A DNA stretch of 58,231 nt. Source: a virus. Its lineage: Duplodnaviria > Caudoviricetes. Below, piece after piece: positions 23,219 to 45,550 of this stretch (its first letter is position 1; each line of letters begins with the position of its first letter). The position numbers and the translations under genes were made by a program. The notes under the pieces were generated by a model. It made no database searches. It had not been told where the DNA came from and saw only the letters and a program-made list of their open reading frames with translations. The stretch spans positions 1 to 58,231 of the IMG/VR virus record IMGVR_UViG_3300047545_000612, one strand, 5' to 3'.

Positions 23219-23335
23219 AACCTTTTTTTTGATTGTACCTAAAGATAAGCACTAAAGTGTAGGGAGGCAACTAATTCTTAATTTATTTTAGGAAGAATCG
23301 CCGCGCAAGATTTTTTATATATACTGTACCGTAAC

Positions 23336-23962
23336 TTAGTAAACAATAGGATTTCCCACTTGAAACAGTGACCCTACCTCTCGTAACTTATCAAAAGCAG
23401 TTAAAGGATCGAGAGTAAAGAACTCTCTTGAATGTCCTTCAGAGGAATTCACCCTTACCTTCCCGTAAATCTTATGCATGGTATTCTCTACCATAAAAGC
23501 AGTACCATTCCTTACAGGAAGTGCAAACTTAGGAATCCATTCGTCAACCGTACCAGAGGTGTTTATCCCCTTGGCTCTTGAAAGAACTTCCTTTACGGTA
23601 GCACCAATCTTAATCAGGTCAGGATAACCGGGATTTACCATTATATAAACATACTCGATATCATCCGGTGTTTTATCCTTTACTTTTGTATTCTCAATAC
23701 CATGGAAGTACCTCCAGGTACAGGTCGTATCATCTTCCCAGCCTTCGAAAGACTCTATAAGGTAAGAGGCAGAGTAATGGGAGAGGATCTTATCTGGAGA
23801 TATATGACGGGCTTTGGTTCGTAGTTCATGGAAGTTATCCTTCCATTGTTGTCCATTCTCTTTATGAGGTTCAAGAGACTTGGGTGAACCATCCACGATG
23901 GTGATTAATCCTTTAGACTCTAATTCAACTGCGGTACGTAAACTTATTTTGTCTTGGTACAT
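23336..23962 (-). CDS. T5orf172 (GIY-YIG superfamily) domain protein
   Basis: YVYIMVNPGYPDLIKIGAT...E..MH...REFF. Confidence 0.8.
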   Translation of the reverse strand: MYQDKISLRTAVELESKGLITIVDGSPKSLEPHKENGQQWKDNFHELRTKARHISPDKILSHYSASYLIESFEGWEDDTTCTWRYFHGIENTKVKDKTPDDIEYVYIMVNPGYPDLIKIGATVKEVLSRAKGINTSGTVDEWIPKFALPVRNGTAFMVENTMHKIYGKVRVNSSEGHSREFFTLDPLTAFDKLREVGSLFQVGNPIVY

Positions 23963-24150
23963 AATTCTTTAATTAAAAATTCAACAAACATCTTTCCTAA
24001 TAAAACCCAAAGCCATGGCCAACCGAAAATGGTAAGTGTCATTTCTCGAGGATTTACACTAGATACTTCTTCAACCTCTTCAACAACGTATATAAGAGGA
24101 AGTGCAAGGATAAGTCCTATCCCTACATAATACAGTACAAAAACTAACAT
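23944..24150 (-). CDS. small membrane protein
   Basis: Two hydrophobic segments, GWP motif. Confidence 0.6.
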   Translation of the reverse strand: MLVFVLYYVGIGLILALPLIYVVEEVEEVSSVNPREMTLTIFGWPWLWVLLGKMFVEFLIKELCTKTK

Positions 24151-24152
24151 GA

Positions 24153-24350
24153 TTAGTCTTGATCTTCGTCTTTAATGAAAAGAAATGCATAGATCCAAAT
24201 ACCAATAACCACAGGCCAGAAAAGTACCGAGGCTATTAGTTCAAAAGTAGTAAGAGGTTCTATCCCTTGGGGATTTGATTTGATTGCAGTATCGAAATAG
24301 ATAGTGACAAGTACCCCCACTATTCCATAAAGTAAAATGTAATTTTCCAT
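24153..24350 (-). CDS. small membrane protein
   Basis: Two TM segments, FWP motif; paralog-like to neighbour. Confidence 0.6.
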   Translation of the reverse strand: MENYILLYGIVGVLVTIYFDTAIKSNPQGIEPLTTFELIASVLFWPVVIGIWIYAFLFIKDEDQD

Positions 24351-24391
24351 AACCTTTTTATTTTTAATATTATATACCTAAATATATAGAC

Positions 24392-24823
24392 TTATCTCTC
24401 TTCTACCAACTTATTTAGTGAAAAAAGGTCTAAATATTTTTTTAATAGAGAACACTCCTCGTAATACTCCACAGATAGAAAGAATTCTGTCATTTCTGAA
24501 AATGCATATTCTATGGCCTGAATTCCAAACTCATCTTCAATCATAGAAAGTGTATCTAACTGTATCTCACCTATTCTCTCAAGGTATTTCATCAATCCCT
24601 TAAAGTAGGTTAGCTTTATATTTTCCCTTTGGGAGTCATACTCCTCTCCGTATTTCTTTTTATATAACTGATCTATGATGTAATAATTTTCAACACCCTT
24701 CACCACCGTTCCCAATAATACGAATGAGTTATCTAACATATGCTCCACACCATGCTCTTTATATACCTCCTCATCTCCGGCTTGGAAGACATCAAAAAGG
24801 GTTTTAGTATCAAGTCTTTTCAT
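24392..24823 (-). CDS. hypothetical protein with UVR-like C-terminal motif
   Basis: EYYEECSLLKK; late motif upstream at 24839. Confidence 0.6.
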   Translation of the reverse strand: MKRLDTKTLFDVFQAGDEEVYKEHGVEHMLDNSFVLLGTVVKGVENYYIIDQLYKKKYGEEYDSQRENIKLTYFKGLMKYLERIGEIQLDTLSMIEDEFGIQAIEYAFSEMTEFFLSVEYYEECSLLKKYLDLFSLNKLVEER

Positions 24824-24894
24824 GTTATTTCTTTTTTATATAAATATATATTTCTTATATACTTAAAAATTGTCCGGAAAAATTCCCGGGGTTA

Positions 24895-24930
24895 GTTGCT
24901 TTTCTGGGTGAAAGGTTTTATATTAAATAT
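24895..24930 (+). promoter_or_regulatory. Bacteroidota-type promoter, antisense orientation
   Basis: GTTGC(24895)-N19-TATATTAA(24919): same geometry as the early promoter repeat. Confidence 0.5.
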
Positions 24931-24939
24931 AAGAAATAA

Positions 24940-25297
24940 AAGTTCATAGGACAATATAAGAGGTAGGTTAGGGGTATAGGTGGTAACTCGTGCTTGAAGA
25001 AAAGCAGCTGAAGAGGAAAATGACTGATACCTGGAAGAGATTGAGGAAACCTCCTTACTTGTAATATAGTGAGGGTAGTGGTCTAGGTGCTCATCTAACG
25101 AAATCATTCCACATAGAGAGGGGAGGACACCTGAGAGTGTAATTTAAAGGAAGTGGCCGGAGTCCGGTGCATTCTGAAAGGAATGGAGTATTTTAAAACA
25201 AACACTTTCTAACAACATCCAATTTCTAGACTGTTTAGTATATAAATATATACCCCCATACCTCAATTTTCATCAGAAATATGCAACTCTATGAGGC
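24940..25297 (+). ncRNA. candidate ~350-nt structured ncRNA
   Basis: No credible ORF; long-range stems GAGGTA/TACCTC and GGGGTATA/TATACCCC; internal stems with G-U pairs on the + strand. Confidence 0.45.
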
Positions 25298-25386
25298 TCG
25301 AGAACCCGACAGCGAACCCGAGTGAGGGAAATTAACTATCAAACTTCTCTCCTCTTGACCTCACCTTGACGTCACCTCTCTTAGGC

Positions 25387-25411
25387 AAAAAAAAAAAGAG
25401 GCCTAAGCCTC
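25387..25411 (-). terminator. intrinsic terminator ending the early block
   Basis: GAGGC-TTAG-GCCTC followed by a long T run on the minus strand. Confidence 0.8.
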
Positions 25412-25666
25412 CTCTTTAAATTCTACTAAGTCCTCAAACCTATACTTTATTTTAACCTTCTTATTCATTATAAAAGCAAATCCTTCGAAGCCTTTTGTAC
25501 CTACCTTGTTTACATTGCAATGATGTCCTTTAAAGACTACTCTCTCATCTAGAGAAGATCTAGACTCTTTCATTATACAATCGTTGTAGTAATAAGTCTC
25601 AGCTCCTTTATAAGTTATTCCTTTTACTCTAAATGATGTTCCGTTTAAAAATTGTTCTTTTGTCAT
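25403..25666 (-). CDS. early hypothetical protein
   Basis: 87 aa behind promoter repeat. Confidence 0.7.
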   Translation of the reverse strand: MTKEQFLNGTSFRVKGITYKGAETYYYNDCIMKESRSSLDERVVFKGHHCNVNKVGTKGFEGFAFIMNKKVKIKYRFEDLVEFKEEA

Positions 25667-25733
25667 GATGTATCTTGTTTTAATTATTGATACCTAAATA
25701 TAAGAACTCTTTCTGGGACTAGCAACTCTTTGG

Positions 25734-25940
25734 TTAATTATTTTCCTCTACAATCTCCTTAACATCTTCCATTGCCATCTTGTAGCCATAATTGATTGCC
25801 ATCTGCATCAAAAGGATATCCATTGACCCTTGATTGGCTTTAGCGAATGCTTCTAACTCATGTCTTGTATTAGGAGTTGAAACAATTCCTCTTGATAACT
25901 CATTGAACCTTCCTGCGATAAACTCTTGTAACTTTTTCAT
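25734..25940 (-). CDS. early hypothetical protein
   Basis: 68 aa behind promoter repeat. Confidence 0.7.
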   Translation of the reverse strand: MKKLQEFIAGRFNELSRGIVSTPNTRHELEAFAKANQGSMDILLMQMAINYGYKMAMEDVKEIVEENN

Positions 25941-26006
25941 AACACTTGTTGTTTTAATTATTTGATTGATTAATTTTGATACCTAAAGATAAGAACTAAT
26001 ATCGTA

Positions 26007-26228
26007 TTAGGCAACTATTTTTAAACTATTTTTATCTACTGAGATTAGTCCTCCTCCTTTTACTCTTAGTATAGCTTCATCGTTCTCCTCATAGAACTCT
26101 AGTAGAACTCCTAGTACTGTCTTTCCAAAGAACTTATCTGTCCCTTTATAAACCATACCTACCATAGGAGAGAATGTCTTAGACACATCCTTTCCTTTTA
26201 CTTTCCAGCTCTTGTATATGTCTGTCAT
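26007..26228 (-). CDS. early hypothetical protein
   Basis: 73 aa, SH3-like beta composition. Confidence 0.65.
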   Translation of the reverse strand: MTDIYKSWKVKGKDVSKTFSPMVGMVYKGTDKFFGKTVLGVLLEFYEENDEAILRVKGGGLISVDKNSLKIVA

Positions 26229-26229
26229 C

Positions 26230-26355
26230 TTAGTTTAAAGATAGATTCATTGCTGCCATTCTTATTACCAACTCCTGTGAGTCAAATGATTGAAAAGAAA
26301 TTACTCCTAAGTCTACTTCAAAGTATTCTACCGATGGTGTTACTATTTTTTCCAT
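26230..26355 (-). CDS. small early protein (41 aa)
   Basis: MEKIVTPSVEYFEVDLGVISFQSFDSQELVIRMAAMNLSLN, directly behind a promoter repeat. Confidence 0.6.
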   Translation of the reverse strand: MEKIVTPSVEYFEVDLGVISFQSFDSQELVIRMAAMNLSLN

Positions 26356-26438
26356 AACCTTTATATGTTTTAATTATTGATACCTAAAGATAAGAATAAA
26401 GATCCTATTTTCAAACTATTTCATCGAATCTTTCTAAT

Positions 26439-26627
26439 TTAATCTAATTTATCTGCTAGAAAGTCTTCGAATCTAGACATAAAAATTAAATCGTTATCAC
26501 TATAGAATTCTTTTAATAGAACTTCTTCTATAAATTCTTTAACGAATTGCTGAACTTCTTTTCTAGTAATTCCTCCGTCAGTAAAATACTCTACGAAATT
26601 CTCATCAACTTCAAATGTAATTTTCAT
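26439..26627 (-). CDS. early acidic hypothetical protein
   Basis: 62 aa behind promoter repeat. Confidence 0.7.
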   Translation of the reverse strand: MKITFEVDENFVEYFTDGGITRKEVQQFVKEFIEEVLLKEFYSDNDLIFMSRFEDFLADKLD

Positions 26628-26709
26628 AATATATATGTTTTAATTATTGATACCTAAAGATAAGAACTAACTATGTAACTAGCAACTATTATACAAACTA
26701 TTTTAACCC

Positions 26710-26732
26710 AAAAAGGCCCCTAAAAGGAGCCT
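26710..26732 (-). terminator. intrinsic terminator
   Basis: AGGCTCC-TTTTA-GGGGCCTTTTT on the minus strand. Confidence 0.7.
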
Positions 26733-26756
26733 CTTCTTCGATCAAATAATTAAAAA

Positions 26757-27536
26757 CTAAACCAACTCTAAAGTTGATTCAATATTGTCTATATGTGCTA
26801 AGACTTGATCTGTGATCTTAGCTACATCTACATTTTCTTCTCTTGAAACAGAACTTTCGTTATACGCATAAGTAAAGACTACTGTTGCTCTCTTTCCTGA
26901 TTTAGATACATCTTCTAATTTAATAGATTTAACTCTAGCTGAATAATTAAATTTTAACTGGATATTAGCAGCTTTTTGAAATCGAACACCTTCACCCATT
27001 AAGTCCTCTCTCATCTTCTCTCTCTTTAACTCTCTGATTTGAGATGCATATGTATCAATCTCTCTTCTTAACTCAGTCATTTGTGAGTATATCTCTGTCT
27101 TCTCATTCAAGAAAGACTTTGCTACTGCATTTATTTTTTCTAATATCTCATTTTGAGAGTATAGAATAATTTCAGCTGCCTCACCTAACATTCTCAATCT
27201 CATCAACTCCCAACTATCCATTCCTTTTGTTTGAGTAGTGTAGTAAGATAGATTTAATCCCTTATAAGCTATCTCTTTTTCATTCCAGCTTTCATCTAAG
27301 TAGATAGTAAATAATTCTTTATTGTAAGTATATTCTGGATGAGGCATAGAGAAGTAAACTCCTCCTCTTTTGATATCGACTACTACTTCCTCTCTGAAAT
27401 TCTTAAAGTAAGGAACTAATACCTCAACTAACTTTGCCTGCTCTCTTCTACCGATATCGCTTATTTTATCCTCTAAGCTATCTCTTTTTTCTAATACTAA
27501 TGCCTTTTTGTCTTCTAAAATTTGAACTCTTGTCAT
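26757..27536 (-). CDS. early coiled-coil hypothetical protein
   Basis: 259 aa behind promoter repeat. Confidence 0.75.
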   Translation of the reverse strand: MTRVQILEDKKALVLEKRDSLEDKISDIGRREQAKLVEVLVPYFKNFREEVVVDIKRGGVYFSMPHPEYTYNKELFTIYLDESWNEKEIAYKGLNLSYYTTQTKGMDSWELMRLRMLGEAAEIILYSQNEILEKINAVAKSFLNEKTEIYSQMTELRREIDTYASQIRELKREKMREDLMGEGVRFQKAANIQLKFNYSARVKSIKLEDVSKSGKRATVVFTYAYNESSVSREENVDVAKITDQVLAHIDNIESTLELV

Positions 27537-27624
27537 GATGTTATATGTTTTAATTATTGATACCTAAAGATATGAACTAACTAGACAACTAGCAACTATT
27601 TTAACAATTATTTTCAATTTAATT

Positions 27625-27685
27625 TGTGGAGAGGGAAGAATCGAACTTCCTGTGTTGGCTTCGCCCACTTCAACCAGACCTCTCC
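27625..27685 (-). ncRNA. mini tRNA-like RNA (acceptor + T arm, no D stem or anticodon loop; tmRNA-TLD-like)
   Basis: GGAGAGG TCTGGTTGAA GTG-GGC-GAA-GCC-AA-CAC A GGAAG TTCGATT CTTCC CTCTCC ACA. Confidence 0.6.
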
Positions 27686-27767
27686 TGGACCTGCAGATCC
27701 AATGGTTTGATGTCTTTCCATCAGTCAACATTGTGCAATTAAAGGGGCACGTTGCTCGTAACCTTTG

Positions 27768-27870
27768 ATGTTGTGACAGGACTCGAACCTGTATGGTAAG
27801 TTGTGGACTTCGTTATCCTTTAGGGCCTAACTTACTCACCACCTGCGTCTACCAATTCCGCCACACAACA
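27768..27870 (-). tRNA. tRNA-like RNA with expanded, non-canonical anticodon arm (no assignable anticodon)
   Basis: 7-bp acceptor TGTTGTG/CACAACA, Leu-type D arm TGGCGGAATTGGTAGACGC, T arm ACAGG-TTCGAGT-CCTGT; 52 nt between the D and T arms. Confidence 0.65.
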
Positions 27871-27877
27871 AACTATT

Positions 27878-28069
27878 CTAGCGAATATTTTCTCTTTGAT
27901 CTACATCCTTAATAGTTGTAACAACAACCCCTCTGGCAATAGTTCTCAAGTATTCTACAATCTCTGCTACTTCAAATCCTTCAGCATATAAATCTAAAGT
28001 CATTACAGTAACAGTCTTTTTGAAGTCTTCCAATAGATTTAGATTAACCAATCCGTCAATTCTTTCCAT
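27878..28069 (-). CDS. early hypothetical protein
   Basis: 63 aa behind promoter repeat; upstream of the tRNA-like cluster. Confidence 0.7.
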   Translation of the reverse strand: MERIDGLVNLNLLEDFKKTVTVMTLDLYAEGFEVAEIVEYLRTIARGVVVTTIKDVDQRENIR

Positions 28070-28116
28070 GATTATATTGTTTTAATTATTGATACCTAAA
28101 GATAAGAAATACCTCT

Positions 28117-28323
28117 CTATCTACCAACTATTAATTGAAAATTCTCACATAATTGATCTTCTGTAAATTCAATCTCCATTCCTGGATTAAAAGATGTTAC
28201 ACTTGCTTCAAACACCATTTCACCTATACCTGACCCTTCTGATAGTTTAAATCTTTCTCCTTTCATAATTGGAAAAGAACCACCATCTAATCTAAAACCT
28301 TTAATACATTCGATTGTTAACAT
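28117..28323 (-). CDS. early hypothetical protein
   Basis: 68 aa behind promoter repeat. Confidence 0.7.
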   Translation of the reverse strand: MLTIECIKGFRLDGGSFPIMKGERFKLSEGSGIGEMVFEASVTSFNPGMEIEFTEDQLCENFQLIVGR

Positions 28324-28391
28324 AGTCTTTATTGTTTTAATTATTGATACCTAAATGTATGAATTAATTTAATACGAAACAACTTTTTCTA

Positions 28392-28553
28392 CTAAAAAAG
28401 TAAAAAATAGTTTAATACAATAAACCAAGTAACTACTATAAAGATAAAGGTAGGTAAAGAGATAGGAGTATCTGGTCTTAAATCTTTTATAGAATAGATT
28501 TTATTTACACCCCAAATCAAAAAGAATTTAATGTTAGTGAAGAATTTTTTCAT
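28392..28553 (-). CDS. small early membrane protein (53 aa)
   Basis: MKKFFTNIKFFLIWG...PTFIFIVVTWFIVLNYFLLF behind promoter repeat. Confidence 0.55.
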   Translation of the reverse strand: MKKFFTNIKFFLIWGVNKIYSIKDLRPDTPISLPTFIFIVVTWFIVLNYFLLF

Positions 28554-28621
28554 GATGATATATTGTTTTAATTATTGATACCTAAAGATAAGAAAAAGGC
28601 CCCGAAGGGCCAACTCTTTTA

Positions 28622-28918
28622 TTAAATACTTTTCAATATTTCTTCCTTAGCAGTTATGCTTGTTGATTTTTCAATCGATCCAATATGCCATTCAATTGCT
28701 GAATCCAAATCCAATTTACGATATTCCTTCCAATCATAAATTGTAAATACATCCTCATTGTCAGTTTCCATATCCCATTCAAAGTTTGTTTTATCTTCCC
28801 CTGTGTTATCCTCCATGCTCGGTTGTCCGAAAGCTTGAATTAATTGATTAACAGTTGCTTTGAATGTTACATAATGAAATGAAGTGTTGTTTGTGCTACG
28901 TGCAGTTACTTTTGCCAT
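28622..28918 (-). CDS. early conserved phage hypothetical protein
   Basis: FGQP...DKTNFEW...FTIYDWK...WHIG, a motif I recognise from phage proteins. Confidence 0.7.
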   Translation of the reverse strand: MAKVTARSTNNTSFHYVTFKATVNQLIQAFGQPSMEDNTGEDKTNFEWDMETDNEDVFTIYDWKEYRKLDLDSAIEWHIGSIEKSTSITAKEEILKSI

Positions 28919-28995
28919 GATTTATATGTTTTAATTATTGATACCTAAAGATATAAAAAAAGGGCCGAATAAACAACCCTTTTAACAACTTTTTT

Positions 28996-29244
28996 TTAAA
29001 TATTACAAAAATAATACGATACTTTTACATCTGCTAATTCTAAAGTATTATATTCTGGACCTGCAGGAGATTTATATTCACGTGCAATTCCCATATACAA
29101 TTCATTTTTACCCCTAGCAATTACAACATCTCCGGCTTGAATATTAAATTCTTCGACTGTATCTCCGAAAAACATCATTTCAGATCCTGTTAATAACATA
29201 ACTAATACTGGCTTTTCTACTGCAATTAAATTTACAATTTTCAT
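28996..29244 (-). CDS. early hypothetical protein
   Basis: 82 aa behind promoter repeat. Confidence 0.7.
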   Translation of the reverse strand: MKIVNLIAVEKPVLVMLLTGSEMMFFGDTVEEFNIQAGDVVIARGKNELYMGIAREYKSPAGPEYNTLELADVKVSYYFCNI

Positions 29245-29311
29245 AATATATCTGTTTTTAATTATTGATACCTAAATATAGTAATTAAACAGATACGAAC
29301 CAACTTTTTAC

Positions 29312-29614
29312 CTAAGTAATTTGATAAATAATTCCTGCCCATTTAAACATGGTGATTGAATCATAAGTGACAGTCCTCCAGCATTTAGACTTATCTGCTG
29401 TCCTTCTGGCCAATTGTACATCGTATAGGATAAGATATCCTTTTGAGGCTGGATCATAATTCAGACCTACACCCTTTACTCCTTGTCTTGTTCCTTTGAC
29501 TGTTGTTAATTCTCTCTGAGTTCCATCCTTCTTTGTATACATGACAGAAAACATAGCACCATTTGGTATGGTGCTTATTGTTTTAAAGAATTCTGATCTT
29601 GACATTGATTCCAT
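29312..29614 (-). CDS. WYL-like SH3-fold protein
   Basis: FSVMYTKKDGTQR...YD......WRTV motif. Confidence 0.65.
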   Translation of the reverse strand: MESMSRSEFFKTISTIPNGAMFSVMYTKKDGTQRELTTVKGTRQGVKGVGLNYDPASKGYLILYDVQLARRTADKSKCWRTVTYDSITMFKWAGIIYQIT

Positions 29615-29627
29615 AATGCTTTATATT

Positions 29628-29861
29628 TTAGTTAACTGATAATCCTTCAAACTTAAGTAAGGAATTACAAATGTATCTATTAAGATGATACATACTATTA
29701 CACTTGTTAACATTAAATAGGATGGTCTTTTTATCTATTTCATTAATCTTCTTCTCTGATAAGAATGAATTAATTGTTTCTTTTGCAGTACTAACATTAT
29801 TTAGTACAAAAACCTCTTTAGCAATTTGCTCAAATACTGATTTGATAGGAAATTTAGACAT
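29628..29861 (-). CDS. early hypothetical protein
   Basis: 77 aa; NSLLKFEGL C-terminus. Confidence 0.7.
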   Translation of the reverse strand: MSKFPIKSVFEQIAKEVFVLNNVSTAKETINSFLSEKKINEIDKKTILFNVNKCNSMYHLNRYICNSLLKFEGLSVN

Positions 29862-29941
29862 AATATACTGTTTTTAATTATTGATACCTAAATATAAGAA
29901 GAAAGAGCCGAACAAGCAACCCTTTCTCCATTTATTTTTAA

Positions 29942-30055
29942 TTAATCTTCATTTTCTTCCTCTTCCTCTTCAAACTCACAATGATCTAAACACTCTGCAC
30001 ATAACTCATCCCATATATGGTGTCTTGATGCACCACAACAACTACTATATTCCAT
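29942..30055 (-). CDS. tiny Zn-ribbon peptide with acidic tail (37 aa)
   Basis: MEYSSCCGASRHHIWDELCAECLDHCEFEEEEEENED. Confidence 0.65.
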   Translation of the reverse strand: MEYSSCCGASRHHIWDELCAECLDHCEFEEEEEENED

Positions 30056-30060
30056 AACCT

Positions 30061-30450
30061 TTATTGTTTTAAATTATTTTCATTTAATACGAACACCTTA
30101 TCCTGCCAGGTCTTAGCCTTAACTGCTCTATACTGAGCAGCATCCATTAAGTTAGTATTGTAGAATAAAGAATTAACTACAGCTACTTCTAACGTCTCAG
30201 CCAATTCCTTATCTATAACCATTACTTTATTACCCTTACGAGCAAATACTGTCATCCAAGCCGGACTACCTTCTTTCTTATACTGTATAGTCTGAAGAGC
30301 TCCTTTCTTCCATTGACTTAAGGAAGGTAAGTCTGACCCTATTTCGTAGGCTACTACAAAGCCTGCTGGTACCCTAACTACAGCCTGGAATAGGCCTTTC
30401 TCTCCATTGATGTAATCTACTACTGTTAATCCCTTGATGTTGTTAATCAT
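30061..30450 (-). CDS. early hypothetical protein
   Basis: 129 aa behind promoter repeat. Confidence 0.7.
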   Translation of the reverse strand: MINNIKGLTVVDYINGEKGLFQAVVRVPAGFVVAYEIGSDLPSLSQWKKGALQTIQYKKEGSPAWMTVFARKGNKVMVIDKELAETLEVAVVNSLFYNTNLMDAAQYRAVKAKTWQDKVFVLNENNLKQ

Positions 30451-30561
30451 AATATTGTATGTTTTAATTATTGATACCTAAAGATAGTAATAAAGTACAT
30501 AGGAGGCAACTCTTATACGTTATTTATATTCATTTTAAATTAAAAAATATTTAACAAAATA

Positions 30562-30597
30562 GTTGCTAGAGAGGACAAGTGTTCGTATCTTTAGGTA
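30562..30597 (+). promoter_or_regulatory. consensus early promoter in antisense orientation
   Basis: GTTGC(30562)-N19-TATCTTTAGGTA(30586), with no ORF downstream. Confidence 0.75.
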
Positions 30598-30733
30598 CGT
30601 TAAAGGAAATAAGGGGCCTGGCTTTGAGAGAGAGTCGGAAGAGTAGACGGGCCGGTACGCCTATTTCTGTAGTAGGTAATACATAGTACTAGATATAAAA
30701 AAAGAGGAAGGACCCTGTTGAGGTCCTTTTTTA
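30598..30733 (+). ncRNA. candidate ~135-nt small RNA, antisense to the 3' end of the ArfA-like ORF
   Basis: Promoter, long GC-rich hairpin (GAAATAAGG...CCTATTTC; CTGGCT/GGCCGG) and terminator AAGGACC..GGTCCTTTTTT. Confidence 0.6.
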
Positions 30734-30831
30734 TTGTGCTTCTCTTTCCTGTTGTAAGTCTTCTTGCTCTTATGAACAAGGTGCCTAGAGGCTGCCCATC
30801 TCTCCTGGAGAGTCACTTGAATTGTCTTCAT
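30661..30831 (-). CDS. ArfA/BrfA-like small basic peptide (putative ribosome-rescue factor), 56 aa
   Basis: MKTIQVTLQERWAASRHLVHKSKKTYNRKEKHNKKGPQQGPSSFFISSTMYYLLQK; K..K.Y.RK.KH motif followed by an in-frame hairpin. Confidence 0.55.
   Translation of the reverse strand: MKTIQVTLQERWAASRHLVHKSKKTYNRKEKHNKKGPQQGPSSFFISSTMYYLLQK
30697..30732. terminator. bidirectional hairpin terminator inside the ArfA-like ORF
   Basis: AAAAAAAGAGG-AAGGACCC-TGTTG-AGGTCCTT-TTTT. Confidence 0.7.
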
Positions 30832-30852
30832 GATTGCTGAGGTTTATTTTAA

Positions 30853-31065
30853 TTAAATAGTCTCATCTAGGAAGAAAGGATCTCCTGAGGTACCAAATAG
30901 GATAAATCCCTCACTATCCTCTTTATAAGGAGTCTCCTCAGAAGACATAAAGAATAAAGTATCAGTAGATTCATCCCTTCCTACATAATGAGCTTTATTC
31001 ATTCTACTACCATCTAAAGTATATTCAACCCCTACTACTAAATCATTTCTTTCAATTGCTTTCAT
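30853..31065 (-). CDS. early hypothetical protein
   Basis: 70 aa behind promoter at ~31077; probably co-transcribed with the ArfA-like ORF. Confidence 0.7.
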   Translation of the reverse strand: MKAIERNDLVVGVEYTLDGSRMNKAHYVGRDESTDTLFFMSSEETPYKEDSEGFILFGTSGDPFFLDETI

Positions 31066-31131
31066 ATCTGTATCTGTTTTTAATTATGTATACCTAAAGA
31101 TAAGAAGAACTATCCTTATAGGCAACTTTTA

Positions 31132-37127: not shown

Positions 37128-37195
37128 AACCTTTATTGTTTTTAATTATACCTAAATATAAGGAAAAGCCTCCGAAGAGGCAACTTTTTTCCTAT

Positions 37196-37930
37196 TTATT
37201 TTTCAAATGTTGGCTTTAACCAAAGTCCTTTACTGAATACAACCTCTATGAATCTAGGTTCTATCTTGTCTATCTCACTGAATAGTCGTAGGGTCTTTAC
37301 AGTATCTGCTTGCATCATCTTGATAACCTCTTCTCTGATTCTTTCTCCACTTACTACTTCTTCTAACTTATTAATTAGAGTTGGTAGGAAAATAGCTGCC
37401 CATACTTTTGGTGCTATTATAAAATCCTTAGTGATAGAGAACCTAAGTGCTCTTAACATCCTTAGTGGATCATCTAGGAATGTCTTAGCAGGATCTAAAG
37501 GTGTAAGTAGCATCTTATTCTCTAAAGCCCACATACCATCAAACAAGTCAATTAAATTACCATCTTCATCTTCGGCCATAGCATTGACTGTAAAGTCTCT
37601 TCGAACTAAATCATCTTCCAATGTACCTAACTCTAGAATTGGACGTCTTGTTCCCTCTACGTATCCTACTTCCTTTCTTGCCATTACAAAGTCAGCATCC
37701 AATTTAGCGAACTTATGGTCGGCTGGGAACTTGGCTCTGATTGTGAACATCTCAGGTACTGAAAGGAATATGGTAAATCCTTGATCGATCATCCATTGCT
37801 CCATCTCTTGGAATCCTTGTTCAACTGTTTTGTTTAGATCATCTAATACAAATGTGAAGTCGATATCCTTTGTGTTTACTCCTAGGAGTTTATCTCTAAC
37901 ACATCCTCCTACTTTAAATATTTTTGGCAT
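37196..37930 (-). CDS. cca: tRNA nucleotidyltransferase (CCA-adding, class II)
   Basis: VGGCVRD.LLG...DIDF, ARKE loop, DL.RRDFTVNAMA, DDPLRMLRALRF and SGERIREE motifs. Confidence 0.85.
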   Translation of the reverse strand: MPKIFKVGGCVRDKLLGVNTKDIDFTFVLDDLNKTVEQGFQEMEQWMIDQGFTIFLSVPEMFTIRAKFPADHKFAKLDADFVMARKEVGYVEGTRRPILELGTLEDDLVRRDFTVNAMAEDEDGNLIDLFDGMWALENKMLLTPLDPAKTFLDDPLRMLRALRFSITKDFIIAPKVWAAIFLPTLINKLEEVVSGERIREEVIKMMQADTVKTLRLFSEIDKIEPRFIEVVFSKGLWLKPTFEK

Positions 37931-38089
37931 AACCTTTATTTGTTTATTTATTTATTTTCTCCAAAACCATCTACCACCTAAATGTCTTCTATCTTCAGGA
38001 TAGTACTCAACATCGTTAAATGCTACCCACCAAACTTCAAGTCTCCAAATGTAGAATACTCTTTCTGCTACTGTATACATAACTCTTAC

Positions 38090-38278
38090 TTATAAATCAG
38101 CATATAGCTGTATTAGGTTTAAATCGCCTCCTGTTCTGTATTTTCCATACTTATCATCAAATCCTCCTCCATCTACAAAATCCTCGTCTTGTTCGTCTTT
38201 GTAGAATTCATCTACTAAGTCAATTGGAAGTACATACCAATGACATGAATCATCTTGAATTGCTTTTACTTTTTGCAT
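38090..38278 (-). CDS. hypothetical protein
   Basis: QDDSCHWYVLP motif. Confidence 0.65.
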   Translation of the reverse strand: MQKVKAIQDDSCHWYVLPIDLVDEFYKDEQDEDFVDGGGFDDKYGKYRTGGDLNLIQLYADL

Positions 38279-38371
38279 AACCTATTTACTTTTTAAATAC
38301 TCTTACTACTAACTTTGCTACTGATTCTATAATTAACCAAATTAAATCAAATACATTTAATAACATAACTC

Positions 38372-38644
38372 CTACTTTTTATACCAAAGAACCTCTGATG
38401 TTATTTTACTTCTTTTACTCTTAAACGTACCATAATCTTGTTGTATCCAATCTAATAATTTCTTATATAGCTTGTTATACGCTGGTTGTTTTTCGAGACA
38501 TGAAATATCATATCTAAAACTGCTATACTTATCTTCTATTAACGTAACTGGGCCCTCAAAGAAACGGTCTGTTATGTATACTCCGTTTGGATAATGAGTA
38601 ATAGAATATCTTTTTCTAATCTTTTTTAATAACTTTACTTTCAT
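38372..38644 (-). CDS. hypothetical protein
   Basis: MKVKLLKKIRKRY N-terminus. Confidence 0.65.
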   Translation of the reverse strand: MKVKLLKKIRKRYSITHYPNGVYITDRFFEGPVTLIEDKYSSFRYDISCLEKQPAYNKLYKKLLDWIQQDYGTFKSKRSKITSEVLWYKK

Positions 38645-38649
38645 AACTT

Positions 38650-39033
38650 TTAATTTAATGTTTGTCTCAATTTAATTAACACCTTCTTTAGGTGCCTTGT
38701 ATTGTCGTAGTTATTTACAAAACTACCTACAACCTCACTTGCTGTGAATAGTGTCTTAGTGAGATATCCTTCCATGAACCTAGATCTACATGCCTCTAAT
38801 ATCTCAGGACAAGTACTCTCACTTGTAATCAATCCGCAGATGTAGTATCCATCTCTTTTATCTAAAATGATATATGGATGTTGAAATATAGGATGCATGT
38901 GAATGTCTCCTACCTTACTAAACTTAGGCTTTCTATTTGCTGAAGCTCCTGGTAAGCATCCTACCCAGCTTAGTAATTGTTGTTGAGAGTAGTTACCTGA
39001 TTTGATCTTCTCCAGTAATGTGTGCTTATCCAT
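38650..39033 (-). CDS. hypothetical protein
   Basis: 127 aa behind promoter. Confidence 0.65.
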   Translation of the reverse strand: MDKHTLLEKIKSGNYSQQQLLSWVGCLPGASANRKPKFSKVGDIHMHPIFQHPYIILDKRDGYYICGLITSESTCPEILEACRSRFMEGYLTKTLFTASEVVGSFVNNYDNTRHLKKVLIKLRQTLN

Positions 39034-39116
39034 AACCTTTATTTTAATTTCTATACCTAAAGGTACGAAAAAAGGCCTGCCGAAGCAAGCCTTTTCTTAA
39101 TTATTTTTAGAATATT

Positions 39117-39968
39117 TTATCGTCTGTTCAACATGATACCTGTACCAGCACCAAAGACGTTATTATTTCCGTAAGGCGATACTCCTCTTTCAGCCCATTT
39201 TCTTTCTGTCTCAGCTCTATATAACTCTAACATCTTAGGTTGAGATAAGATTGCTTTTGTTTTAGCATCATACAAAGCAGCTTCGTAGTTACCTTTTGCT
39301 AATGCAATTTTCTTCAATGCTGTTTGCTCTGCTTGCAATGTCTGAGATTTGATTGTAGCTGTCTCTTGAATTACTCTGATCTTAGTTTCAATTGCTTTCT
39401 TATATGAAGTTGGAATTGACATCTTTAAGATTGCAATGTTGTTTAAGATGAATCCTTCCTTAGCCAATGACTTAGCTAATGTACTTGTTACATCTCTTTC
39501 ATATACGTTTCTGTGTTGTAATAAACTATCAGAAGCAAATCCTACTGCATTGTCTAACAATTCTTTTCTAACAATATTTCGAACTCTTGTATTAATCAAC
39601 TCATCCATATCTACTCTATACTTTGTAAATAAAGTTGGTGCTGCTGATCTTTCTAATTGTAAGTTAATTGCTACGTCTAATCCAAATGTAGCTCCATCTG
39701 CTGATGTTACATCAATATGCTCATCTGTTGGAGAGTCTTCATCTACTGATGCAGTCCATACTTTATGCTGTACCGATGTTGGATACATATACACGTCTTG
39801 TGTTGGTGGGAAGTAGAAGATGAACCCTGATGCCATCTCAATATTTGGAATACCTTTATCATTTCCAATTTGATCTACTACTAATGCCACTTCACTTGAA
39901 TCAGCTGTTGTACATGATGTAACAGACATTGCTAATACCACTCCTAATAACCATAATGTTCTTTTCAT
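39117..39968 (-). CDS. SPFH/band 7 lipoprotein
   Basis: Lipobox TSC; VTSADG...DVAIN..., coiled-coil stalk. Confidence 0.8.
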   Translation of the reverse strand: MKRTLWLLGVVLAMSVTSCTTADSSEVALVVDQIGNDKGIPNIEMASGFIFYFPPTQDVYMYPTSVQHKVWTASVDEDSPTDEHIDVTSADGATFGLDVAINLQLERSAAPTLFTKYRVDMDELINTRVRNIVRKELLDNAVGFASDSLLQHRNVYERDVTSTLAKSLAKEGFILNNIAILKMSIPTSYKKAIETKIRVIQETATIKSQTLQAEQTALKKIALAKGNYEAALYDAKTKAILSQPKMLELYRAETERKWAERGVSPYGNNNVFGAGTGIMLNRR

Positions 39969-39994
39969 AACTTGTTTTTGTTTTTAAATTGTTT

Positions 39995-40249
39995 TTATTT
40001 TTCTATTGCTTGTTCTTTTAACATTTTTTCTAATTCTTTAGATGTGTACTTCTTAATAGTATCTAATGAACCGCCAGGTTCAACAAAAGGTCCTTTACCT
40101 TCTTTATCCCCTACACTCCATACAGTCCTTTGCTTTGCTAAAATACCGTTTGTATCATAAGTTAAAAATTCATTTCGGTAATACTGAATTTTATCAACTA
40201 CTACTGTGTGATGTATTTTGACTTCCCTAGCTGTTTCTTTAATTTGCAT
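39995..40249 (-). CDS. hypothetical protein
   Basis: 84 aa ORF. Confidence 0.6.
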   Translation of the reverse strand: MQIKETAREVKIHHTVVVDKIQYYRNEFLTYDTNGILAKQRTVWSVGDKEGKGPFVEPGGSLDTIKKYTSKELEKMLKEQAIEK

Positions 40250-40263
40250 AGCCTATTTACTTA

Positions 40264-40521
40264 TTAATACTTTTCTAATACTACAACTCCCTTAGACGTA
40301 CTCTCGTCATCCATCATTGCTACTGACTTAACAATGAAACCTTGTTTTACTTTTTCTCGAGTAAACTCCTCTATGTCATTTTCAAGACCATACATTGTTC
40401 TAAATGACTTTACAATAGTAACTTTTGGTGTTGCTGGCTTAACAGTCATGATGTTAACTGTTGCTGCTGATGTTAGTGCGATCATTGATACTCCTAACAT
40501 GAAATAAAATACTTGCTTCAT
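40264..40521 (-). CDS. secreted hypothetical protein
   Basis: Signal peptide-like N-terminus. Confidence 0.6.
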   Translation of the reverse strand: MKQVFYFMLGVSMIALTSAATVNIMTVKPATPKVTIVKSFRTMYGLENDIEEFTREKVKQGFIVKSVAMMDDESTSKGVVVLEKY

Positions 40522-40583
40522 AACTTATTTGTTTTTTAATTATACCTAAATATAAGAACTATATTCTTTCTAGACAACTTTTT

Positions 40584-40766
40584 TTAAATTCTATTTTTTA
40601 AATCAAGATTAACATTTGTTGACTGTTTGTAAACCTTAAACACTCCATCAACTGAATAATCTTCAGATTCATGCCTCCAAAGTACATTTTCACCTGTTTC
40701 TTCGTCTCTAATTAGTTCACAATTGTCCATTAACCAATGTACAAAATCTTCTATATCTTTTCCCAT
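40584..40766 (-). CDS. hypothetical protein
   Basis: 60 aa behind promoter. Confidence 0.6.
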   Translation of the reverse strand: MGKDIEDFVHWLMDNCELIRDEETGENVLWRHESEDYSVDGVFKVYKQSTNVNLDLKNRI

Positions 40767-40809
40767 AATACTATTTGTTTTTTAATTATACCTAAATATA
40801 TGAACTTAT

Positions 40810-41184
40810 TTATTCTAATCCTAATTTTTTACGTTTATTTGTATCGTACTGACTACCTTTGAATAACTCAGCAAATTTTGCATCAATTACTTTTCTTGAC
40901 TTATACCATCTTGGCACTGCGCCAACTCCATCTATTGTGTAAGGATAGTATATAAACCATTTAATATTTCTAGTAATTGTTGGTGCTTCGCTAAATTTAC
41001 TTTGAATAATTAAATTTCCATCCCAATTATTGTGTATACGGTCATAAAGATTTCCTTTCTTTTCAAACAACTCTAAGATATCTTTATCTTTAGCTGGTGA
41101 TCCGTCCTCTATGCGGATAAAGGCAATACTCGCTAATTGTGCTACTAGAAATAATATCAATACTACTGTTAAAATTATACCCAT
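40810..41184 (-). CDS. membrane-anchored hypothetical protein
   Basis: N-terminal TM helix. Confidence 0.6.
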   Translation of the reverse strand: MGIILTVVLILFLVAQLASIAFIRIEDGSPAKDKDILELFEKKGNLYDRIHNNWDGNLIIQSKFSEAPTITRNIKWFIYYPYTIDGVGAVPRWYKSRKVIDAKFAELFKGSQYDTNKRKKLGLE

Positions 41185-41675
41185 TATTCGTAATTTTCGT
41201 TAAATACTTTGTTTAAATTATCTCGTTTATTCTTTAACTCTTTTTTACGAGCATCTATTTCTAACCTCTCAGCATTTTCAATAAACCATTGTGCTTCGTA
41301 GTACTCTTTCAAACTTACATCAATATCTGTATACTTTACATCATTCAAGTAAATCTTACCAGTAGATGTATATTTGTATTGAAGAAGATTAACAGGGTAT
41401 GGTATAAGGTGCATTAAAAGTAACAGTCCTACATTAGCATCATCATATCCTAATTCCCATTTACGAATGCACCATCCATTCCATTCATCATCTAATAATT
41501 CATAGATTGGATCAACTTTTGTTAAGAAACGTTTTCTCTTAGGTAGTTTTATATTTAATGCTATTTTATCTCTAATCTCTAAAGAGTAGAGACTTATATG
41601 CAATAGAAATGCAAATATAATGTAAAGTGCTAAAAATACTAATCCGTCTAGAATAAAATTAAATACTTGTTCCAT
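41184..41675 (-). CDS. membrane hypothetical protein
   Basis: TM segments. Confidence 0.6.
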   Translation of the reverse strand: MEQVFNFILDGLVFLALYIIFAFLLHISLYSLEIRDKIALNIKLPKRKRFLTKVDPIYELLDDEWNGWCIRKWELGYDDANVGLLLLMHLIPYPVNLLQYKYTSTGKIYLNDVKYTDIDVSLKEYYEAQWFIENAERLEIDARKKELKNKRDNLNKVFNENYE

Positions 41676-41950
41676 TACTCTTGATCTTTATTTTCTAAAT
41701 AATCTATATACTCTTTAGCGATTAAAATTAACTTAACTAAAGCATATATCATAGACCCTAAAACAGTTAACAATAATACTACTCCTAAATTAAATTCAAC
41801 TAAGTTAGACGCACTCATCATTCCTAGTGGCAAAGTAATTAGTTGAAGCATACCAAATAACCAGAGTCCGAAGCCTATAGCTTTCCATCCTAACTTTTTC
41901 ATCTTATTTACTACTTGAATTATTTTTAAACAAAATTCCAAACAATACAT
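41675..41950 (-). CDS. membrane protein
   Basis: Two TM helices; real start probably MKKLGW (~41902). Confidence 0.55.
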   Translation of the reverse strand: MYCLEFCLKIIQVVNKMKKLGWKAIGFGLWLFGMLQLITLPLGMMSASNLVEFNLGVVLLLTVLGSMIYALVKLILIAKEYIDYLENKDQE

Positions 41951-42104
41951 TTAAACCTAATGCTTGCCAAAACCCAATTGGATGTGTTCCGTCTACTGCT
42001 GGTACTAAATCATTGTTCCACAAATACTGTACAGGCCAAGCCATTAATACTGCTACTAGTAGTAGTACTCCTATTGCTGTTACAAAAATTCCTAATTTTT
42101 CCAT
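41904..42104 (-). CDS. small membrane protein
   Basis: LWN...IGFWQALGL motif common in phage membrane proteins. Confidence 0.7.
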   Translation of the reverse strand: MEKLGIFVTAIGVLLLVAVLMAWPVQYLWNNDLVPAVDGTHPIGFWQALGLNVLFGILFKNNSSSK

Positions 42105-42106
42105 TT

Positions 42107-42346
42107 TTATACTACTTTTACTAATTTAATATATTGAACGTCTCTTTTACCTAATAACTTACCTATTGTTAAACCTAACCAATTATTTTTAACTAATACA
42201 ACAGCATATCTTGTTTTAATAGTTTCTCCTTGCTCTTCGGTTAAGAATTCTTCCCTAACTAAGGCATCAACTATAGCTTCTTTAGCGTTGTTATAATTTT
42301 GTAAATCATCTGTTAATCCTAAATCCTCTGCTGAATAACTTGCCAT
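42107..42346 (-). CDS. hypothetical protein
   Basis: 79 aa ORF. Confidence 0.65.
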   Translation of the reverse strand: MASYSAEDLGLTDDLQNYNNAKEAIVDALVREEFLTEEQGETIKTRYAVVLVKNNWLGLTIGKLLGKRDVQYIKLVKVV

Positions 42347-42350
42347 ACTA

Positions 42351-42593
42351 TTATTTGTAAAATGTTTTTAAATAGATTGCTTGTTGTCTAATACCAAATT
42401 CTCTTGTAAGAACATTGGATGGCATTTTATCAGCCATGAAATGATTTAAACCTATAATCATTTTGGCAGCATCAAACTTTCTTTCTCGACCTTGAATCAT
42501 TCCTTCAGTATCTGCTAATTTGTTAATTATAAAAGCTAAATGCTGTGGAGTTTCACATTTATTAACCTCTTGCCATGTTTCTAATTCAGTCAT
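42351..42593 (-). CDS. hypothetical protein
   Basis: LTREFGIRQQAIYL motif. Confidence 0.65.
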   Translation of the reverse strand: MTELETWQEVNKCETPQHLAFIINKLADTEGMIQGRERKFDAAKMIIGLNHFMADKMPSNVLTREFGIRQQAIYLKTFYK

Positions 42594-42596
42594 AAC

Positions 42597-43034
42597 TTAT
42601 TTTTTTGAAATTAATTGAGCAATTGCTTTTGCTTTCTCTAACTTACTCATATCTGATTGTTCAATGATAGTTAAAGTCTGGTATGCTTTGAATTCATTCT
42701 CAATAAACTCATCTGATTTGATCTCATCTAAGAACTCAAGTTTCATTCTAGTCTCTTGGATAAATGCTTTAGTTGCTTGGATCTTATCCTCTGCCTTTTC
42801 GATTTGTTCTAAGAACTTCTCTCTGTTTGTCTTAGCAACTCCTTTATCCAAACTACCTGAGTCAATGTGCACTCTTCCGTGGCTTGGTGTTTTAACTATG
42901 TAGGTCTTGTCGTAACCTTTTCCTTCAACGATCACCTCAGTACCTGGAACTAGTCCGTAGTTCTTTCTATCGTACATACTTACTTTGTTGTTGACGATTG
43001 CAATGTCTCCGTCTTGAAATTTTCTTACTGCCAT
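42597..43034 (-). CDS. hypothetical protein (SH3-like + coiled coil)
   Basis: 145 aa behind promoter. Confidence 0.65.
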   Translation of the reverse strand: MAVRKFQDGDIAIVNNKVSMYDRKNYGLVPGTEVIVEGKGYDKTYIVKTPSHGRVHIDSGSLDKGVAKTNREKFLEQIEKAEDKIQATKAFIQETRMKLEFLDEIKSDEFIENEFKAYQTLTIIEQSDMSKLEKAKAIAQLISKK

Positions 43035-43271
43035 AACTTATTTGTTTTTTAATTATACCTAAATATAGGAATTATATTCCTTCTAGGCAACTATTTTATT
43101 AATTATTTTAATAATCTAGTCTTTCATCTATTTGCTCTATACAATCCTCTATACTACTTCCAAACCCCATAGGTGTATCACAATCATCAGTACAGTAGAA
43201 CTTTAGCTTGGTATAGGGATGAGCCACGTAGTAGTTCTCGTTCTCTTCTATTATATAATTCTTATACTGCA

Positions 43272-43469: not shown

Positions 43470-43470
43470 T

Positions 43471-43707: not shown

Positions 43708-43708
43708 C

Positions 43709-44530: not shown

Positions 44531-44610
44531 AACTTATTGTTTTAATTATTAATATACCTAAAGATATGAACAATATACTTAGTAGGCAACTAATTCACAA
44601 TTTTTTTTAA

Positions 44611-45484: not shown

Positions 45485-45550
45485 AACTCTTATTTCTTTA
45501 TTTACCTAAAGATAAGAAGAAGCCTCCGAGGAGGCAACTTCTTTCAATAT

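Follow-up and report, generated by a model that had tools for sequence, protein, structure and literature searches.

A 56-aa open reading frame (ORF) on the minus strand of a 58,231-nucleotide stretch of Caudoviricetes DNA (IMG/VR record IMGVR_UViG_3300047545_000612; the whole stretch is called the window hereafter) is, as judged from sequence comparisons, a real gene, one of a large family of basic mini-proteins that phages carry and that share a core of about 37 aa. We read its product as an ArfA-type ribosome-channel tail placed on a different front end. That the peptide works as an ArfA-like alternative ribosome rescue factor is a proposal for which, in our judgement, the balance is even. 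The reading frame runs through a terminator-like hairpin and converges with a predicted small RNA gene. The features of the peptide gene are as follows.

30661..30831, minus strand: peptide ORF of 56 aa (ATG at 30831, stop codon TAG at 30661-30663)
30721..30831, minus strand: conserved core, codons 1-37 (residues 1-7 extended and 8-15 helical in the model, then the basic tail HKSKKTYNRKEKHNKK)
30697..30728, minus strand: in-frame hairpin and T-run (stem 30728..30708, AAGGACCT/CAACA/GGGTCCTT, 8 pairs; CCTC from 30707; T7 at 30703..30697)
30664..30696, minus strand: codons 46-56 (ISSTMYYLLQK), a variable tail that is reverse-complementary to the 3' part of the small RNA

The original prediction had described a minus-strand ORF of 56 aa with a basic core, followed directly by an in-frame hairpin with a T7 run. 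Both are present, the ORF with the sequence that had been quoted at 30661..30831, and the hairpin with its T7 at 30728..30697 on the minus strand.

All 40 candidate homologs returned by a word-indexed search at E <= 1 are small, most often 49 aa long within a range of 40 to 82 aa. Aligned with one another, they hardly vary over residues 1-15, and K23, K24, Y26, R28, K29, K31 and H32 are invariant or nearly so; the tails beyond the hairpin vary both in length and in sequence. Scans with back-translated patterns yielded 98 relatives from viral contigs (80 of them retained) and 12 in genome contigs or metagenome-assembled genomes (MAGs) of Bacteroidota, together with one protein of a Firmicutes MAG that has the tail motif only. 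When 1.84 billion representative proteins were scanned with the family profile, 266 clusters were obtained at E <= 1e-3 and 96 at E <= 1e-10, and in most of the 266 the module stops a few residues short of the C-terminus. The ratio of non-synonymous to synonymous polymorphism (pN/pS) was 0.24 over codons 1-32 (51 sequences), which indicates purifying selection. With the 266 clusters and this ratio, the earlier claim that the peptide is real and conserved is borne out. An ORF that is never translated, the conserved DNA being a terminator and a small RNA gene only, would fit the shortness of the frame. Such an explanation is scarcely credible, since selection acts on the codons, the most strongly conserved part is codons 1-37, which the RNA gene does not reach, and the protein clusters mostly come without the RNA.

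The conserved core is hydrophilic and strongly basic, and has no membrane segment. AlphaFold2, run with the family alignment, predicted an extended N-terminus, with a mean predicted local distance difference test score (pLDDT) of 90 over residues 1-10, together with a helix formed by residues 8-15 and coil across the basic region. Among library scans with the window peptide, NCBIfam gave no match and phrog_20887 matched at E 0.0014. The immuto phages were the only cultured carriers found; there the peptide is gp147, 49 aa long and annotated 'hypothetical protein'.

When a ribosome has stalled at the 3' end of a truncated mRNA, it is the basic C-terminal segment of ArfA that lies in its empty mRNA channel. 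The C-terminal half of the family core carries a motif of the ArfA/DUF7230 type, K-[SN]-K-K-x-Y-x-R-K-x-K-H-K, and in the window peptide the ArfA-type match extends over residues 15-37. When the family profile was compared with 177,635 PDB sequences, five matches were found at E <= 10; the best of them (E 0.44) is ArfA, as are four of the five, and family residues 17-39 were aligned onto ArfA residues ~27-53. No BrfA chain was among these five matches, BrfA being assumed to be in the PDB set on account of its cryo-EM structure. We then aligned the family directly with ArfA, using an alignment seeded with E. coli arfA (K-12 record) and its collected relatives; these are all enterobacterial, so that the ArfA profile is a narrow one. 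The hhalign comparison gave P = 2.5e-4 over 22 columns with 50% identity (score 23.4). This score was reached by none of 200 shuffles of the ArfA columns, by none of 200 shuffles of the family columns, and by none of 200 shuffles made within ArfA residues 26-50, in which the lysine cluster was kept together. By these controls, the match of the basic half to the ArfA tail exceeds what composition explains.

A search with ArfA by tblastn showed that cultured phages of proteobacteria have bona fide ArfA genes. The one annotated in Pseudoalteromonas phage J2-1 (51 aa; L112:283-435, where labels such as L112 stand for individual loci of the comparison set, and labels such as P0225 for individual proteins) is informative, as it scores 41.3 bits with Pfam ArfA (cut-off 25.5) and 28.6 bits with DUF7230 (PF23876; cut-off 27). 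Its tail reads ...DKTKYRRKKKHKNREEG, and it ends with ...RVERDKTKYRRKKKHKNREEG followed by an ordinary stop codon. The family aligned with it without gaps (hhalign, P = 3.1e-5, probability 73%). This bridging protein is the third of three independent indications of ArfA, beside the PDB search and the comparison of profiles. Since the J2-1 protein passes both gathering scores, the two Pfam families overlap, and DUF7230 is probably an ArfA-related family; E. coli ArfA itself matched DUF7230 at E 0.11. DUF7230 is also the Pfam family that most family members resemble: 36 of 41 matched it at E <= 1, always across the basic motif and always below the cut-off. In 201 sampled Bacteroidota genomes, no DUF7230 protein was found above that cut-off. 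Among the nearest named clusters of the ESM Atlas are clusters bearing DUF7230 (20% of members) and ArfA (23% of members, score 0.84); these are leads only, since all scores are below 0.9.

Two 55-aa MAG proteins, one from Cryomorpha (L093:2902-3066) and one from a Firmicutes (L094:2911-3075), have unrelated N-terminal halves and a common KSKK-x-Y-x-RKEKHK tail. The Cryomorpha protein matches Pfam ArfA (E 0.073) and DUF7230 (E 0.015) weakly.

Further evidence comes from the layout of the gene. The hairpin region spans codons 35-45 and encodes KGPQQGPSSFF. It is terminator-like on both strands, folding at -11.5 kcal/mol on the minus strand and -14.4 kcal/mol on the plus strand, and termination at this place would give a product of about 44 aa without a stop codon. 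In the two neighbouring minus-strand cassettes, the hairpin begins 10 nt past the stop codon (ORF end 28996 and hairpin from 28983; ORF end 29942 and hairpin from 29929). As the stop codons of the neighbours precede their hairpins, a stop 45 nt beyond the stem is unusual in this genome. In all, 91 loci were classified, made up of the window itself, 80 loci from viruses and 10 from genomes, with the following result.

38 of 91 loci (34 distinct sequences): read-through class, with a hairpin and a T-rich tract 3-16 nt past the motif and a stop codon 7-206 nt beyond the stem
3 of 91 loci: clade members that fail the T-run criterion
8 of 91 loci: stop codon before or inside the hairpin
42 of 91 loci: stop codon at nt 96-138, no hairpin found

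The stems of the read-through loci vary in sequence yet remain paired (GGACC/GGTCC, GGGCC/GGCCC, GAGGATCC/GGATCC, GAGTC/GACTC, GGTCC/GGACC). RNAalifold returned no consensus structure for the terminator alignment, because stem registers differ between loci; conservation of the stem is therefore argued from the folds of individual loci. Whether homologs keep the hairpin and not the tail had been named as a check in the original prediction; in these 38 loci they do, as the stems differ and still pair while the tails vary. The core of the small RNA is absent near 11 of the 38, and the hairpin is kept there nonetheless, which indicates that it belongs to the peptide gene and is not merely borrowed from the RNA. 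In one MAG copy (L087:3097-3124), the stop codon falls in the hairpin loop, a state intermediate between the normal-stop and the read-through layouts.

The original prediction had further held that the peptide is ArfA/BrfA-like and that it is made by a non-stop design. Each of these claims stood in part. The C-terminal half does match the ArfA motif, whereas the N-terminal half is unlike ArfA, and no threshold was reached for ArfA, BrfA or DUF7230. The non-stop layout is found in 38 of 91 loci, the window included; the other part of the comparison contains what the prediction itself had named as speaking against it, as 50 of 91 loci have their stop codon before or inside the hairpin, or have no hairpin.

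Several further results weigh against reading the peptide as a rescue factor of this kind. Pfam ArfA (PF03889, gathering score 25.5 bits) did not match the window peptide at E <= 10 or any of the 41 members at E <= 1, while E. coli ArfA, the positive control, scored 89.5 bits. With DUF7230, the window peptide scored 16.6 bits and the best family member (L089) 23.1, against a cut-off of 27. The likeness to ArfA is confined to about 22 lysine-rich residues, and the GKG insert of ArfA is missing from the family motif. No counterpart was found for ArfA residues 15-31, which are described as contacting RF2, the hhalign alignment beginning only at family residue 16 and ArfA residue 26. In a longer, conserved form of the protein, represented by eight clusters of 156 aa and one of 157 aa, the module is fused to a hydrophobic C-terminal domain, so that a free tail directly after the motif is not obligatory. 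As to the layout, the ordinary stop of the 50 loci comes after 32-46 codons, with the terminator, where found, after or around it, which means that non-stop synthesis is unnecessary for the function of the family. Of the 38 read-through loci, 17 have their stop codon only 7-12 nt past the stem, possibly within the terminated transcript. The T7 run of the window is 4 nt away from the stem, the hairpin is the weaker terminator in the direction of the peptide gene, and several other loci have a poor T-run on the peptide strand (L011, L015, L016, L018, L027, L034). It is plausible that non-stop synthesis is a derived regulatory layer of one clade and not a requirement of the family.

The proteins of the 156-157-aa fusion form are P0225, P0315, P0317, P0318, P0321, P0322, P0324, P0325 and P0328. 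In most of them, the KH of the N-terminal module is changed to KS-W or KD-F.

The tail, alike over 22 residues, may be shared with ArfA by common descent or by convergence. Convergence is assumed by one alternative, namely that the peptide is a generic nucleic-acid-binding mini-protein (an RNA chaperone, a partner of the neighbouring small RNA, or a DNA binder), with a reading frame that happens to cross a shared terminator and a tail that is tolerated or belongs to a read-through product. We consider this possible, though clearly less probable than rescue. It agrees with a likeness to ArfA that is limited to a short basic motif, with the normal stops of most family members and with the fusion of the module to a membrane domain. 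It does not account for a motif match above composition-matched controls, nor for an unbiased PDB profile search that placed ArfA on top. The evidence from the small RNA is considered further below.

The contrast between the two halves of the peptide also allows for a plug of the mRNA channel that recruits no release factor, and that would block access of tmRNA-SmpB (tmRNA, transfer-messenger RNA) or of ArfB, or else initiation on host ribosomes. An ArfA-type tail motif on an N-terminal half unlike the RF2-binding part of ArfA is what such a plug might look like. It is an unlikely explanation: the presence of bona fide ArfA in phages of proteobacteria suggests that rescue itself is useful to phages, and if a plug were made from a non-stop message, the ribosome making it would be trapped. 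A co-fold of peptide residues 1-44 with the post-frameshift part of RF2 from Flavobacterium aciduliphilum gave a score of 0.00, which is not evidence either way.

If the peptide is a rescue factor, the following course of events can be proposed. Early in infection, it would bind through its ArfA-type tail to ribosomes whose mRNA channel is vacant, and its N-terminal strand and helix, which are not those of ArfA, would engage a release factor. The ribosome would then be freed for phage translation. In the clade of the window, the transcript would end at the in-frame hairpin and give a message without a stop codon, as for brfA and arfA; to judge from this layout, the peptide would escape tagging by tmRNA only when trans-translation is saturated or absent. 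The benefit to the phage might be the recycling of ribosomes stalled on cleaved host mRNAs. This last point is speculation, and a similar benefit is proposed for annotated phage ArfA by the authors of phage genome papers.

The family shares some features with the known rescue systems and differs from them in others. ArfA (PF03889; E. coli b4550) is likewise small and has a basic C-terminal motif, K-x-K-K-(GKG)-S/T-Y-x-R-K-x-K-H. It is described as made from a non-stop mRNA, a design that the window gene matches in layout, and the full-length protein also has a poorly conserved hydrophobic tail past the truncation point. Its N-terminal half, however, is unrelated, and mature ArfA has about 55 aa against about 37 in the window family, which lacks the GKG insert, has mostly normal stops and stays below the Pfam threshold; moreover, the family occurs in phages of Bacteroidota, whereas ArfA is found on proteobacterial chromosomes. 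The ArfA proteins reported for phages (Pseudoalteromonas J2-1, Citromicrobium RXM, Pseudomonas pf16, Salmonella Arash and pelagiphage HTVC027P gp30) are phage-encoded and small like the window peptide, and in J2-1 an ordinary stop follows a few residues past ...KYRRKKKHK, as in the normal-stop members of the family. They differ in that they pass Pfam ArfA (29.6-72.6 bits), keep the N-terminal region of ArfA and come from phages of proteobacterial hosts; they are reported as annotations only. BrfA of Bacillus subtilis offers a parallel in layout, with an intrinsic terminator within the coding region and a product truncated a few residues into the T-run. Both the internal terminator and the tmRNA-dependent down-regulation of brfA are reported as shown experimentally; unlike the window gene, brfA lies on the chromosome, in Firmicutes. 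In Francisella, ArfT, a protein of 40 aa that is described as recruiting RF1 or RF2, shares a lysine-rich motif near the C-terminus in an ordinary reading frame, but this motif is KKGGSTNKK and not K-K-x-Y-x-R-K-x-K-H, a comparison made from the published description. As for DUF7230, it is the sole Pfam family matched repeatedly and has the same motif, but, as noted above, every match is under the cut-off.

The strand opposite the end of the peptide gene carries a predicted small RNA gene with the following features.

30562-30597, plus strand: full-consensus promoter (AGTTGC at 30562-30567 at consensus spacing; TATCTTTAGGTA at 30586-30597, with the -7 box)
30600..30735, plus strand: predicted small RNA of ~135 nt, from promoter to terminator, with ends inferred from sequence
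30609..30662, plus strand: conserved RNA core (GGGGCCUG and GGAAGAGUAGAC, both invariant, with a paired hairpin of variable sequence between them, and after these GGGCCGGUAC; 79.2 bits with covariance model R1)
30618..30638, plus strand: hairpin P2 of the RNA core (CUGGCUU/GAGUCGG; RNAalifold gave 7 pairs, 4 with compensatory double changes)
30704..30733, plus strand: terminator of the small RNA (the same hairpin as in the peptide gene, 11 pairs including G-U, with a U-run directly after the stem)

A full-consensus promoter on the opposite strand at 30562-30597, and an RNA of about 135 nt covering the stop codon and the hairpin, had been predicted before; the promoter was found again, and the RNA was predicted again: the two promoter elements stand at the consensus spacing of the phage itself, and the RNA is predicted to run from ~30600 to the terminator at 30704-30733. 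The plus strand is the better terminator direction of the shared hairpin. The only plus-strand ORFs in this region have 27 and 35 aa, and both start at or before the predicted transcription start. With model R1, which covers the 54-nt core, 33 matches were found in 30 of 93 sources, all opposite the peptide strand and 150-430 nt past the ORF start, with two copies in three loci. Of 27 viral loci with the core that were examined, 25 have an inverted -7 box, located 211-437 nt past the start of the ORF, and the core follows this box directly. After the second invariant segment of the core, related loci continue with one of two 3' variants. We conclude from these comparisons that the small RNA is a separate, structured gene, with its own promoter and with a bidirectional terminator held in common with the peptide gene.

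In the cultured phage immuto, R1 scored 77 bits, and the RNA lies on the opposite strand under gp146, annotated 'hypothetical protein'. This gene of 32 aa (L099:1426-1524) overlaps the RNA core (L099:1427-1480) and is probably a spurious gene call. In three loci (L012, L028 and L005), two RNA cores are arranged in tandem downstream of a single peptide gene. Between core and terminator, relatives have a variable number of AU-rich mini-hairpin units of ~18 nt (ACTTAAAG-NNNN-GCTTTA), of which the window has none. Arrays of these units occur in L003, L006, L009, L011, L013-L018, L020-L022, L027 and L034, and also at L099:1330-1420, and part of the units are similar to the -7 promoter box (GCTTTAGGTA). 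In relatives, tails of the peptide like ...FLSKAFL are simply the ~18-nt units in translation.

Rfam offers no family for the small RNA. A search of the window RNA against Rfam 15 gave no family at the gathering score, the only hit being FopS (RF04319) at 24.6 bits against 56 (E 0.78, terminator end only), and the RNA of six related loci gave no match at E <= 1. Among 61 sampled Flavobacteriaceae genomes, no host homolog was found at E < 0.7, with a single match at E 0.7. Further copies or targets of the invariant RNA segments were not found in the window beyond chance, nor was an exact complement of the 12-nt GGAAGAGUAGAC in one Flavobacterium genome.

A possible mimicry of tmRNA was considered, as the RNA core of the window has a stretch of 23 nt in common with a Flavobacterium tmRNA, in the 5' part of the latter; the score of 24 was reached by none of 320 background windows and by one of 500 shuffles. 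It was rejected for lack of conservation: the stretch is the variable P2, the variants in L006 and L011 gave nothing, and R1 had no match to the tmRNA at E <= 10. As we read its sequence, the tmRNA of F. aciduliphilum encodes the tag GENNYALAA. That the RNA core pairs with the peptide mRNA near its 5' end was discarded likewise, as duplex energies were within ~1-2 standard deviations of shuffled mRNA in 21 of 21 loci, at inconsistent sites.

The predicted RNA overlaps the last 25 codons and the stop codon of the peptide ORF (~75 nt), and an antisense effect on read-through transcripts is possible. The original prediction had gone further, to a dedicated antisense RNA that might itself generate the non-stop end. 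The first claim did not hold, since the invariant structured core lies outside the ORF and 11 of the 38 loci with an in-frame hairpin have no RNA; for the second, no evidence was found in the sequence comparisons. The same overlap brings to mind a type I toxin-antitoxin pair, in which a toxic peptide's mRNA is covered at its 3' end by a convergent antisense RNA that triggers its degradation. The convergent layout, the antisense overlap, the shared bidirectional terminator and an association conserved in 30 sources all resemble such a pair. The hydrophobic toxin, however, is not there, the peptide core being hydrophilic and basic without a membrane segment; the conserved part of the RNA (30609-30662) is outside the overlap and, as said, pairs no better with the 5' part of the peptide mRNA than with shuffled mRNA; and most family members have no such RNA. 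We regard this explanation as very improbable.

The small RNA bears on the nucleic-acid-binding alternative as well. The peptide adjoins it in 30 sources, and the loops of P2 are GNRA-like purine loops. Loops of the GNRA-like kind are bound by arginine-rich peptides in other phages. On the other side, 61 of the 91 classified loci have the peptide and not the RNA, which means that the RNA is not the general partner of the peptide, and the hairpin is still in frame in the 11 RNA-less loci of the read-through class.

Going back to the rescue factor, peptide and RNA could also be joined, in a clade of Flavobacterium phages, into a two-gene circuit that senses the trans-translation capacity of the host, in which a terminator-truncated ArfA-like peptide with a new release-factor-engaging N-terminus is tuned by the convergent RNA. 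The peptide would accumulate only when tmRNA is saturated, for instance after mRNA cleavage induced by the phage or by a defence system, and the RNA would tune it either by way of the overlap or via the rescue machinery itself. As a whole, this circuit is doubtful. If it exists, Bacteroidota would have their first ArfA-type factor, phages would have their first rescue factor that is experimentally tractable, and a new class of phage small RNA would be added.

For E. coli K-12, RefSeq lists yrdG, an 'arfA-derived small regulatory RNA', which lies on the same strand as arfA and at its 3' end (L082:4432-4485). Here a small RNA is known to go with a rescue-factor gene at the end where its message is truncated.

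Phage-encoded ArfA has been annotated before, and the non-stop regulation of arfA and brfA is known. What is new is a separate family of ~37 aa in phages of Bacteroidota, its brfA-like variant and the associated small RNA. A literature search of titles, abstracts and selected passages found no paper on DUF7230 and none on a rescue factor in Flavobacterium phages. Rescue factors that recruit a release factor (ArfA, BrfA and ArfT) are described only for proteobacteria, Bacillus subtilis and Francisella in the sources consulted, and one paper argues that ArfT-like proteins are more widespread. Should the rescue function be true, a large, separate family of ArfA-tailed mini-proteins in phages of Bacteroidota would bring this strategy into another phylum and into viruses, and would represent a second independent origin of a rescue factor made from a non-stop message. 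It would also supply a natural series of minimal factors of ~37 aa, with a normal stop or an in-frame terminator, for dissecting how the empty mRNA channel is sensed. The small RNA, for its part, is a conserved phage RNA without an Rfam match. Direct tests could be made in a cultured system, gp147 of phage immuto on Flavobacterium sp. LMO8.

The only named relatives of the window are the Flavobacterium phages vB_FspM_immuto. In the window, the region 30.5-31.1 kb is part of a cluster of small minus-strand genes, with the same promoter-like cassette before each gene. The box TCTTTAGGTA (at most one mismatch) occurs 35 times in the window, compared to 10.2 +/- 3.0 expected. From 24 sites matching T[CA]TTTAGGTA, 21 on the minus strand and three on the plus strand, the consensus aAAAtAGTTGc-N21-TTCtTATcTTTAGGTAT was obtained, which we take to resemble the -33/-7 promoter type of Bacteroidetes. 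Apart from the promoter of the small RNA, the plus-strand sites (1597 and 7558) have no AGTTG at the expected position. Upstream of the peptide gene are two further features.

31091..31127, minus strand: nearest upstream consensus promoter for the peptide gene (AGTTGC at 31127..31122; -7 box TCTTTAGGTA at 31100..31091)
30853..31065, minus strand: ORF of 70 aa, upstream neighbour of the peptide gene, without a Pfam or PHROG match

This promoter probably drives the 70-aa ORF and the peptide gene jointly. In public RNA data, eight runs contain 5-13% of the sampled words of the window. One metatranscriptome contig (run X4, 211 nt, 7 differences) corresponds to 30742-30952 and includes parts of both ORFs, a weak hint of co-transcription. 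RNA contigs from four runs cover 30188-30430, the promoter repeat at 30447-30510, and 30742-31065; the region 30528-30741, with the small RNA, the hairpin and the tail, is outside their coverage. As these data are contigs, transcript ends, strand and absence are not readable from them.

The surroundings of the peptide gene differ among its carriers. A link with tRNA genes was not apparent, as tRNA was found in 4 of 60 loci and the peptide gene lies inside a tRNA cluster in one jumbo-phage locus only. In that 290-kb viral contig (L060:1-5138; L061 and L063 are alike), it stands inside a 5-kb cluster of 12 tRNA genes. In F. aciduliphilum, the genomic copy has SIR2, SLOG and DUF4116 proteins as neighbours, an uninformative context.

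The 21 minus-strand promoter cassettes of the window (AGTTGC-N21-TTCtTA-T[CA]TTTAGGTA) lie within 23236-31127 and 37149-45950, and most of them share the leader TCAATAATTAAA directly downstream. In several, the terminator hairpin of the preceding gene is located between the -33 and -7 elements (for instance 28598-28611, 28958-28983 and 29898-29929), forming compact terminator-promoter cassettes. Between 28000 and 34000, 10 terminator-like sites were counted, compared to 2.5 +/- 1.7 in shuffles.

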